NCBI GenBank assembly: GCA_043826565.1
Contig: JBDRPX010000008.1
Span: forward strand, 17,744 to 81,743
DNA: 64,000 nt
Direction of reading: 5' to 3'
DNA from: Candidatus Omnitrophota bacterium
Lineage (GTDB): Bacteria; Omnitrophota; Gorgyraeia; B26-G9
In this document: in pieces, positions 19,757-19,812 of the stretch
Layout: every line of letters starts with the position of its first letter
Numbering within the stretch: the first letter of the stretch is position 1
The notes under the pieces: generated by a model
Seen by the model: only the letters and a program-made list of their open reading frames with translations
Databases searched by the model: none
What the model was told of the DNA's origin: nothing
Translations under genes and position numbers: made by a program

Positions 19757-19812
19757 TGTCTTTTTTTATGATATTATAATACAAATAAGACACTAATCAA
19801 GTGAAAAGTATA
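19757..19812 (-). promoter_or_regulatory. putative PintI promoter within a conserved ~50-bp element (copy A)
   Basis: minus strand -35 TTGATT (19800-19795), 16-nt spacer, -10 TATAAT (19778-19773); element TGTC-N-GACA..AATCAAG recurs at 31607-31660. Confidence 0.4.

Follow-up and report, generated by a model that had tools for sequence, protein, structure and literature searches.

In an uncultured bacterium of the Omnitrophota, the intergenic region upstream of intI, the integrase gene of a chromosomal integron, contains a short promoter-like element (copy 1, positions 19757 to 19810 of the 64-kb window, by which we mean the whole stretch of DNA that was analysed), and the same element recurs as a direct repeat 11.85 kb away (copy 2, 31607 to 31656). 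We consider it probable that copy 1 is the promoter of the integrase gene, PintI, with a nearly symmetric -10 hexamer, and that copy 2 is its lineage-specific paralogue, supplying transcription to a B12-binding radical SAM gene (B12-rSAM), to an SGNH/GDSL hydrolase gene (GDSL) or to both. The pair most likely represents a promoter duplication, and not evidence of a shared stress regulon.

The two copies and the region upstream of intI

Copy 1 and copy 2 share an exact run of 25 nt, CTTTTTTATGATATTATAATACAAA, and the identity of about 85% that the earlier note had reported for these positions is confirmed over about 52 nt in a global alignment. Self-comparison of the window with blastn aligns them at 88.9% identity over 45 nt (E=4e-7) and, once the attC and IS-like repeats are set aside, places them as its top repeat; past about 55 nt there is no similarity on either flank. 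Their 21-nt core occurs exactly twice in the 64-kb window with three mismatches allowed, where 0.01 occurrences are expected. It is also correct that both lie in divergent intergenic regions: copy 1 between intI on the minus strand and the first cassette on the plus strand, and copy 2 in the 143-nt gap between B12-rSAM (minus) and GDSL (plus). Assembly k-mers are usually longer than 25 nt, and since the exact run is shorter than that we think that the repeat is not an assembly artefact; an independent assembly (Logan contig L001) is 100% identical across copy 2 and both of its flanks.

The gene behind copy 1, intI (18422 to 19735, minus strand), encodes an integron integrase of 437 aa, which starts with GTG after GGAGG, carries an N-terminal extension of about 110 aa and scores 412 bits against TIGR02249 (cutoff 265). 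Residues 112-423 match VchIntIA (PDB 2a3v, E=5e-79), and IntI is 100% identical to P0001, an NCBI MAG protein annotated as ‘integron integrase, Candidatus Omnitrophota’. The extension resembles a weak second SAM-like domain of the core-binding type (PF13495, E=0.002, below cutoff). A protein search with IntI returned at least 8000 scored candidates at E<=1e-30, and nearly all of the 120 matches listed are 425-445 aa long; the N-extended IntI looks like a large, uncharacterised IntI subfamily.

We propose that copy 1 would serve as the core promoter of this gene on the minus strand. The promoter scan finds a -35 hexamer TTGATT (19795 to 19800, minus strand) and a -10 hexamer TATAAT (19773 to 19778, minus strand) separated by 16 nt, within the 16-18 nt of a sigma-70 promoter and together matching 10 of 12 consensus positions, with a predicted start near 19766. 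From there a leader of 31 nt would lead to the GGAGG ribosome-binding site and the GTG start, which the database protein also uses. Among the relatives compared, which were those with the closest integrases (70-80% identity) and available DNA, the element stands at the same place upstream of intI in L012, L013/L015/L021, L016/L022 and L017; L014, with only 44 nt upstream of intI, was left out. In at least five related integrons, intI is preceded by this -35, spacer and -10 with their flanking dyad. On the minus strand, TTGATT or TTGCTT at the -35, a spacing of 16 nt, TATAAT at the -10 and ATCA directly after it are invariant. The architecture is kept even in L039 and L035, where IntI identity is only 57%, and over all eight sequences compared the -35 reads TTGATT, TTGCTT or TTGAAT. 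Only a few bases from PintI, the spacer of the cassette promoter Pc is almost randomised among the same genomes, which argues for constraint on PintI and not for mere common ancestry. As expected of a sigma-70 promoter, the PintI hexamers are more conserved in the orthologues than the sequence around them. The earlier description of copy 1 as a promoter facing intI has stood up well, since -35, spacing and -10 are kept in all related platforms examined, and we regard this promoter reading, made from comparison of sequences, as well supported.

The integron platform and the symmetric -10

Beyond PintI, and back-to-back with it, lies the predicted cassette promoter Pc (TTGACT-17-TATAAT, 19819 to 19847, plus strand; 11 of 12 in the promoter scan), of which both hexamers are kept, with a varying spacer, in L012, L016, L017 and L022. 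About 95 nt to the right of copy 1 is attI, with the crossover core GTTATAC (19891 to 19897, plus strand). Platform homology ends there: an alignment of five platforms has a conserved Pc and a conserved attI arm, and homology is lost right after TGTTA(T/G). The attC array, at about 20.5-30.2 kb, consists of the repeat families D1, D3 and D5, and its last attC (ATAAC...GTTAT, family D5; 30127 to 30205, plus strand) stands 25 nt from the stop codon of B12-rSAM. Copies 1 and 2 have neither the GTTRRRY nor the RYYYAAC core and so do not belong among the attC or attI sites.

The cassette array also holds an HNH cassette and, between attC sites on the strand opposite to the cassettes, a transposase gene of the IS110/IS116 family (DEDD; 24959-26050, minus strand). 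A 66-nt inverted match between 28205-28269 and 4509-4573 (82% identical, E=4e-7) joins the first part of a cassette ORF (28186-28530) to sequence immediately downstream of the gene at 4585-5616, which encodes an HTH/ATPase/DUF4325 protein. On the other side of the platform, the genes downstream of intI differ among integrases that are 70-80% identical to that of the window: a PA0069-like radical SAM gene in the window and L014, a btuF/C/D-cobO-TonB receptor cluster in L013, L015 and L016, cysteine desulfurase/NifU in L017, and a different B12-rSAM with a transposase HTH in L012. The platform, or else its surroundings, has moved between close relatives. The L012 gene was considered as an orthologue of the B12-rSAM of the window and was rejected at 25% identity. 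For the radical SAM gene downstream of intI, the longest ORF (17623-18510, minus strand) has an overlap of 88 nt with the 3' end of intI. Its product is PA0069/Rv2578c-like at scores below the family cutoffs; only from residue 46 onward is it homologous to the L019 orthologue, which places the true start probably about 135 nt inward.

The core of the element can be read on both strands. On the plus strand, one nucleotide out of register with the -10 of PintI, TG-n-TATTAT makes an extended -10, which in copy 1 is TG-A-TATTAT (19769 to 19777, plus strand), with a predicted start near 19784; the sequence TGnTATTATA is invariant in all eight sequences. The -10 hexamers of the two strands occupy 19772-19777 (plus) and 19778-19773 (minus) in copy 1 and 31621-31626 and 31627-31622 in copy 2, and with this offset of one nucleotide the -7T of each hexamer pairs with the -11A of the other. 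Copy 1 thus has the sequence geometry of a symmetric bidirectional promoter, with predicted starts at 19766 and 19784 that are both A and lie 18 bp apart. The earlier note had placed a minus-strand TTGATT-15/16-TATAAT promoter in both copies, and these hexamers are indeed present; where its account falls short is in having copy 2 face the radical SAM gene only, leaving out the plus-strand extended -10, which points at the cassettes in copy 1 and at GDSL in copy 2.

Bacterial symmetric bidirectional promoters have the same reciprocal pairing of -7T and -11A and starts 18 bp apart (Warman et al., 2021, as related in PMC10268837). As that paper relates them, copy 1 resembles these promoters in the pairing, in the distance between its predicted starts and in its position between divergent genes (PMC10268837), and differs from them in having a true -35 on one side only and in its flanking inverted repeat, the arms of which co-vary from one lineage to another and do not figure in that description. 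On the minus strand the conserved TG serves no purpose, nor does the conserved -35 on the plus strand, from which we infer that both directions are under selection. The PintI module could thus also fire toward the cassettes, upstream of the separate, stronger Pc.

To our knowledge, the studied cases of intI control rely on LexA or CRP, and little is known outside the Proteobacteria. The PintI1 promoter of class 1 integrons has a LexA operator and is overlapped by P2 (Guerin, 2009; Cambray, 2011; reviewed in PMC8876359). As described in that review, the -10 hexamers of PintI1 and P2 overlap by 3 bp, with P2 driving the cassettes, an arrangement of which the opposite-strand -10s of copy 1 are reminiscent, and the intI promoter lies in the intI-attI gap with a dyad overlapping its -10, as it does here (PMC8876359). 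The present locus departs from the class 1 arrangement in lacking CTGT-N8-ACAG or any other known LexA box, in having Pc in the gap back-to-back with PintI and not inside intI, and in its Omnitrophota host and the extra N-terminal domain of its IntI. In being a sedentary chromosomal integron it is like that of Vibrio cholerae, with PintIA and Pc in attIA; both there and in class 2 integrons (Pc2/PintI2, tail-to-tail) the two promoters share the intI-attI gap and fire apart, as they would here, and no convergent interference is therefore expected. Regulation in V. cholerae involves LexA and cAMP-CRP boxes, neither of which is evident here.

The locus combines features of known kinds, namely the PintI/Pc platform of an integron, a -10 of the symmetric bidirectional type and the duplication of a promoter, and it is a further example of them with a slight twist. 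It nonetheless offers an Omnitrophota integron whose PintI/Pc platform is defined and phylogenetically footprinted and, in the co-varying dyad around the symmetric -10, a candidate cis-element that is directly testable. Such a dyad in an unstudied integrase subfamily might be the only part of possible specialist interest.

The dyad around the -10

The TGTC..GACA dyad of the earlier note is real and conserved in relatives, and it proves to be longer than was first noted and to lie around the -10. In copy 1 the left arm (H2) is TGTCTT (19757 to 19762) and the right arm (H3) is AAGACA (19787 to 19792), 2 nt from the -35; in copy 2 the arms are TGTCTT (31607 to 31612) and AGGACA (31635 to 31640), with one base lost on each side of the -10 and the dyad centre kept. 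The arms extend to 9-10 nt with one mismatch, and their centre falls within one base of the symmetry point of the -10. In the window, TGTCY-N24-27-RGACA is found only at copies 1 and 2 (0.46 expected); a GrACA/GAACA pentamer occupies the H3 position in seven of the eight sequences, and the dyad has a shuffle P of 0.004-0.04 in six of them, L012 (0.14) and L017 (0.40) not being significant. Relatives carry a third half-site, H1, by which a tight palindrome, rGACATGTCy, is formed just past the -10 and ahead of the ribosome-binding site of intI; this palindrome occurs once per locus and only at PintI. Copy 1 has AGAC-ctt-GTCT in its place (19751 to 19761), one nucleotide longer and disrupted, and in copy 2 half of it is missing.

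The arms read TGTCYT/ARGACA here, TTCGTA/TACGAA in L039 and TTCCGC/GCGGAA in L035. In a core-anchored ungapped register, 40 of the 48 cells of their outer six positions are paired, and sliding the partner brings this down to 7-21 of 48; compensatory double changes are found at four of the six arm columns, and H1, H2 and H3 change sequence in concert between lineages. The sample behind these counts comprises 3-4 independent lineages only. IntI relatives on viral contigs were considered as additional lineages and rejected, having same-strand upstream genes and GC-rich contexts. Judged from these sequences, a conserved global repressor would explain the arm pattern less well than would base pairing, a co-evolving protein or a quasi-palindrome maintained by templating.

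We judge it unlikely that a single repressor, LexA-like or other, has its operator in the shared dyad and that intI and B12-rSAM form a small co-regulated stress regulon, a reading that develops the co-regulation by a common repressor suggested in the earlier note. Such an operator would account for the position of the dyad, centred on the -10 of copy 1 and of copy 2 (shuffle P about 0.01 for each), for its conservation in relatives and for the fact that its centre survived the loss of one nucleotide on each side of the -10 in copy 2; moreover, where LexA controls PintI, as in class 1 and Vibrio integrons, the operator classically overlaps the -10. The arms themselves, however, argue otherwise, since they differ between two Omnitrophota lineages (TGTCYT, TTCGTA) and a third (TTCCGC) and yet stay complementary, which speaks against one conserved global repressor. 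Their separation of 22 or 24 nt is a poor fit to such a repressor with fixed geometry, and the arms lie about 30-32 bp apart from centre to centre, farther than one helix-turn-helix dimer would span. The B12-rSAM genes of relatives, furthermore, lack the element.

The more specific suggestion, that the element is a variant of the LexA box, is not borne out: a search with exact arms for 13 published LexA-box architectures matched none of them in either gap. The LexA motif of the Verrucomicrobia is TGTTC-N4-GAACA. The nearest LexA-like site, CTGT-N9-ACAG at 31584-31600, is not within the shared element, and its spacing is wrong, with N9 where N8 would be needed; in the form CTGTA-N7-TACAG this stretch of the B12-rSAM leader resembles a LexA box of the E. 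coli type, and the same leader holds a perfect 12-mer palindrome, TGAAAATTTTCA (31569-31580), also outside the element. In the 64-kb window we found neither an S24/LexA or other obvious regulator gene nor lexA, recA or dinB, and a search of the literature returned nothing linking Omnitrophota and LexA. The common repressor fares no better, as the window contains no obvious regulator gene, copy 1 has a disrupted rGACATGTCy and copy 2 lacks half of it. We find no positive support for either idea.

A structural role for the half-sites, in which H2/H3 or H2/H1 would pair in RNA or single-stranded DNA, either as a 5' stem-loop on the intI mRNA or as a switch hiding and exposing the -10, seems to us improbable. 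The complementarity of the outer arms and the compensatory double changes described above are what pairing would produce, the loop length is flexible, and the spacer of the H1-H2 palindrome varies from 0 to 5 nt across lineages. L013 has a strong predicted leader hairpin (-13.4 kcal/mol, z = -3.7) and L035 a moderate one; copy 1, L012 and L016, on the other hand, have weak hairpins or none, and an RNA hairpin in the intI leader was for this reason rejected as a general feature. The predicted starts, moreover, lie between H2 and H3, so that no predicted transcript carries both arms, and a stem of 6-10 bp, much of it A-T (all of the inner part), with a loop of 16-24 nt is marginal. Rfam has no match at the gathering threshold in the whole window, and none at E<=1 in either gap, and the few independent lineages limit the weight of the covariation. 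Further afield, the integron of the Thiodictyon syntrophicum plasmid pTs485 (L093, 1085-1135) has at the equivalent position a 48-nt near-perfect palindrome with 22-nt arms and a 4-nt centre, which would favour a structure; it stands between an attI-like GTTAGGC and an N-extended intI (39% identical), some 20 nt upstream of the latter.

A broader conjecture, which we offer with much doubt, is that the dyad-flanked symmetric -10 constitutes a portable module of the N-extended IntI subfamily, either bound by the extra domain of the integrase or gating structure. That the half-sites are arm-type sites bound by this domain, which would lead to autoregulation, is one explanation of their concerted change; another is that they pair into a structure, of DNA or RNA, by which the promoter is gated. 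If this conjecture were true, copy 2 would put two ordinary chromosomal genes under integrase-linked control.

Copy 2 and its neighbourhood

The simpler account that we prefer, namely that copy 2 is a duplicated PintI supplying its flanking genes, draws on the history of the region. B12-rSAM (30230 to 31543, minus strand) is a conserved chromosomal neighbour, whose best homologues (56-60% identity) occur in conserved synteny in L018, L019 and L020, in the order MscS-Cpn10-metallo-beta-lactamase-(AhpC)-inositol phosphatase-hyp314-B12rSAM on one strand. The conserved hypothetical gene hyp314 (32713 to 33660, minus strand; 61% to its L019 orthologue) is in these relatives directly upstream of B12-rSAM, and their strand and spacing suggest that the two form one operon there; the gaps upstream of B12-rSAM in L018-L020 (11-110 nt) have no trace of the element. 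In L019, B12-rSAM is followed by a small DUF2798 gene and then by a radical SAM gene of 293 aa, orthologous to that downstream of intI in the window (52% identity), and there is no integron between them. The integron of the window thus sits between two old neighbours, and B12-rSAM is the chromosomal flank at the end of the array.

Between hyp314 and B12-rSAM the window has a lineage-specific insertion, the SGNH/GDSL hydrolase gene (31687 to 32739, plus strand), which overlaps the 3' end of hyp314 by 27 nt. Its homologues form a small, taxonomically mixed family, none of them above 65% identity, and from this we read it as an acquired gene. Copy 2 stands at the left edge of the insertion, 30 nt before the GDSL start, and contains the dyad, the -10 and the -35 only, Pc and attI being absent. 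A possible extension into Pc or attI, including an apparent inverted TTGACTTT, was dismissed, since its alignment scores fall below the 95th percentile of shuffles. The derived sequence ATACAAA is common to copies 1 and 2, and copy 2 agrees with the relatives in AATCAAGG.GAAA; this pattern indicates that copy 2 descends from the PintI of this lineage and that both copies have diverged since.

On the minus strand, copy 2 has a -35 hexamer TTGATT (31643 to 31648) and a -10 TATAAT (31622 to 31627) facing B12-rSAM, read directly from the sequence, with a predicted start near 31615 that would give a 72-nt leader. The spacer of 15 nt is suboptimal and outside the range of the scan, which gave instead TTGATG-16-TATCAT (9 of 12). 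On the plus strand, the extended -10 TG-A-TATTAT (31618 to 31626) faces GDSL, with a predicted start near 31633, and is overlapped by the scan hit TGTACA-16-TATGAT. These two hits, both overlapping copy 2, are all that the scan found in 31450-31800, which covers the whole gap between B12-rSAM and GDSL. No recognisable ribosome-binding site precedes the ATG of B12-rSAM.

We suggest that the GDSL insertion would have cut B12-rSAM off from the same-strand gene that is directly upstream of it in relatives, and that copy 2, as the sole promoter-like sequence of the gap, may now supply transcription to B12-rSAM on the minus strand, to GDSL on the plus strand, or to both. It is plausible on this sequence evidence that copy 2 is a promoter and it probably drives one or both flanking genes; given its plus-strand extended -10, it may serve GDSL as much as B12-rSAM. 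The situation is like promoter capture after an operon-breaking insertion, in which a promoter segment appears at a new site beside a gene separated from its same-strand neighbour, and unlike the usual promoter duplication or capture in that the donor is an integron platform promoter. Copy 2 would then be a small natural experiment, with the same module predicted to drive non-integron genes. The duplication alone is ordinary genome tinkering, and it is no evidence that the integron and the radical SAM enzyme are functionally tied.

The co-regulation of intI and B12-rSAM read into the two copies accordingly has to be restricted. Two similar promoters may well behave alike, and co-expression of copy 2 with intI is plausible; but B12-rSAM is a syntenic chromosomal gene which in relatives lies, without the element, behind a same-strand gene, so that any co-regulation would be a recent strain-level accident and not a conserved regulon.

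There is also a small chance that copy 2 is a non-functional scar, a platform fragment that arrived with GDSL or was left by a rearrangement, and that the flanking genes are transcribed from elsewhere. It is, after all, lineage-specific and borders an inserted segment; H1, Pc and attI are missing from it, and its spacer is shortened to 15 nt. A scar, however, would hardly be expected to retain intact promoter hexamers on both strands after about 15% divergence or to acquire symmetric indels. The 143-nt gap, moreover, has two divergent genes to serve and no other promoter-like site, and B12-rSAM, without its former same-strand upstream neighbour, needs a new promoter.

Searches for further copies bear on the specificity of the element. 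The 21-nt core matches ten unrelated AT-rich genomes (Firmicutes, cyanobacteria and others) in the collection of species representatives, once in each; their flanks have no similarity, and with nothing in common beyond the core these matches were set aside as chance. The family-level pattern, TGTCN{6,8}TGATATTATANNNNAAAN{8,9}AANCAAG, which includes the flanks, has only two matches in the JGI metagenomes, both upstream of intI and already known, and a looser pattern has 12 matches in viral contigs, all inside coding sequence and likewise attributed to chance. Apart from the copies upstream of intI in relatives, no further copy was found in the genome, metagenome and viral collections. The element therefore does not behave as a dispersed repeat or miniature mobile element, with two copies in 64 kb and, in the collections, only intI-upstream or chance matches. 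The many copies in random contexts that the earlier note named as telling against a specific operator appear neither in the window nor in these collections, whose scans point to a specific element rather than to a dispersed repeat or a generic consensus. That the likeness of copies 1 and 2 reflects merely a strong-promoter consensus or dispersed repeat, without specific meaning, is by now largely refuted and hardly tenable: several of the ten genome matches do lie directly upstream of a ribosome-binding site and start codon, and the RF-1 promoter of L019 reads TTTTATGCTATTATA, but these genome matches agree with nothing outside the core, the pattern with flanks occurs in metagenomes only at intI, the viral matches lie in coding sequence, and copies 1 and 2 agree at non-consensus spacer and flank positions over about 52 nt.

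Elsewhere in the window, its strongest repeat is a direct repeat of about 165 nt (38394-38558 and 40468-40631, 92% identical), which brackets an ORF of 626 aa (38585-40465) with no Pfam match; Logan contig L001 ends inside the first copy. At 50517-53521 a HindIII-like restriction endonuclease adjoins a large DNA methylase-like gene, and 57386-63969 carries phage tail genes (tip attachment protein J-like, NlpC/P60 and minor tail protein L) that are probably a prophage remnant.
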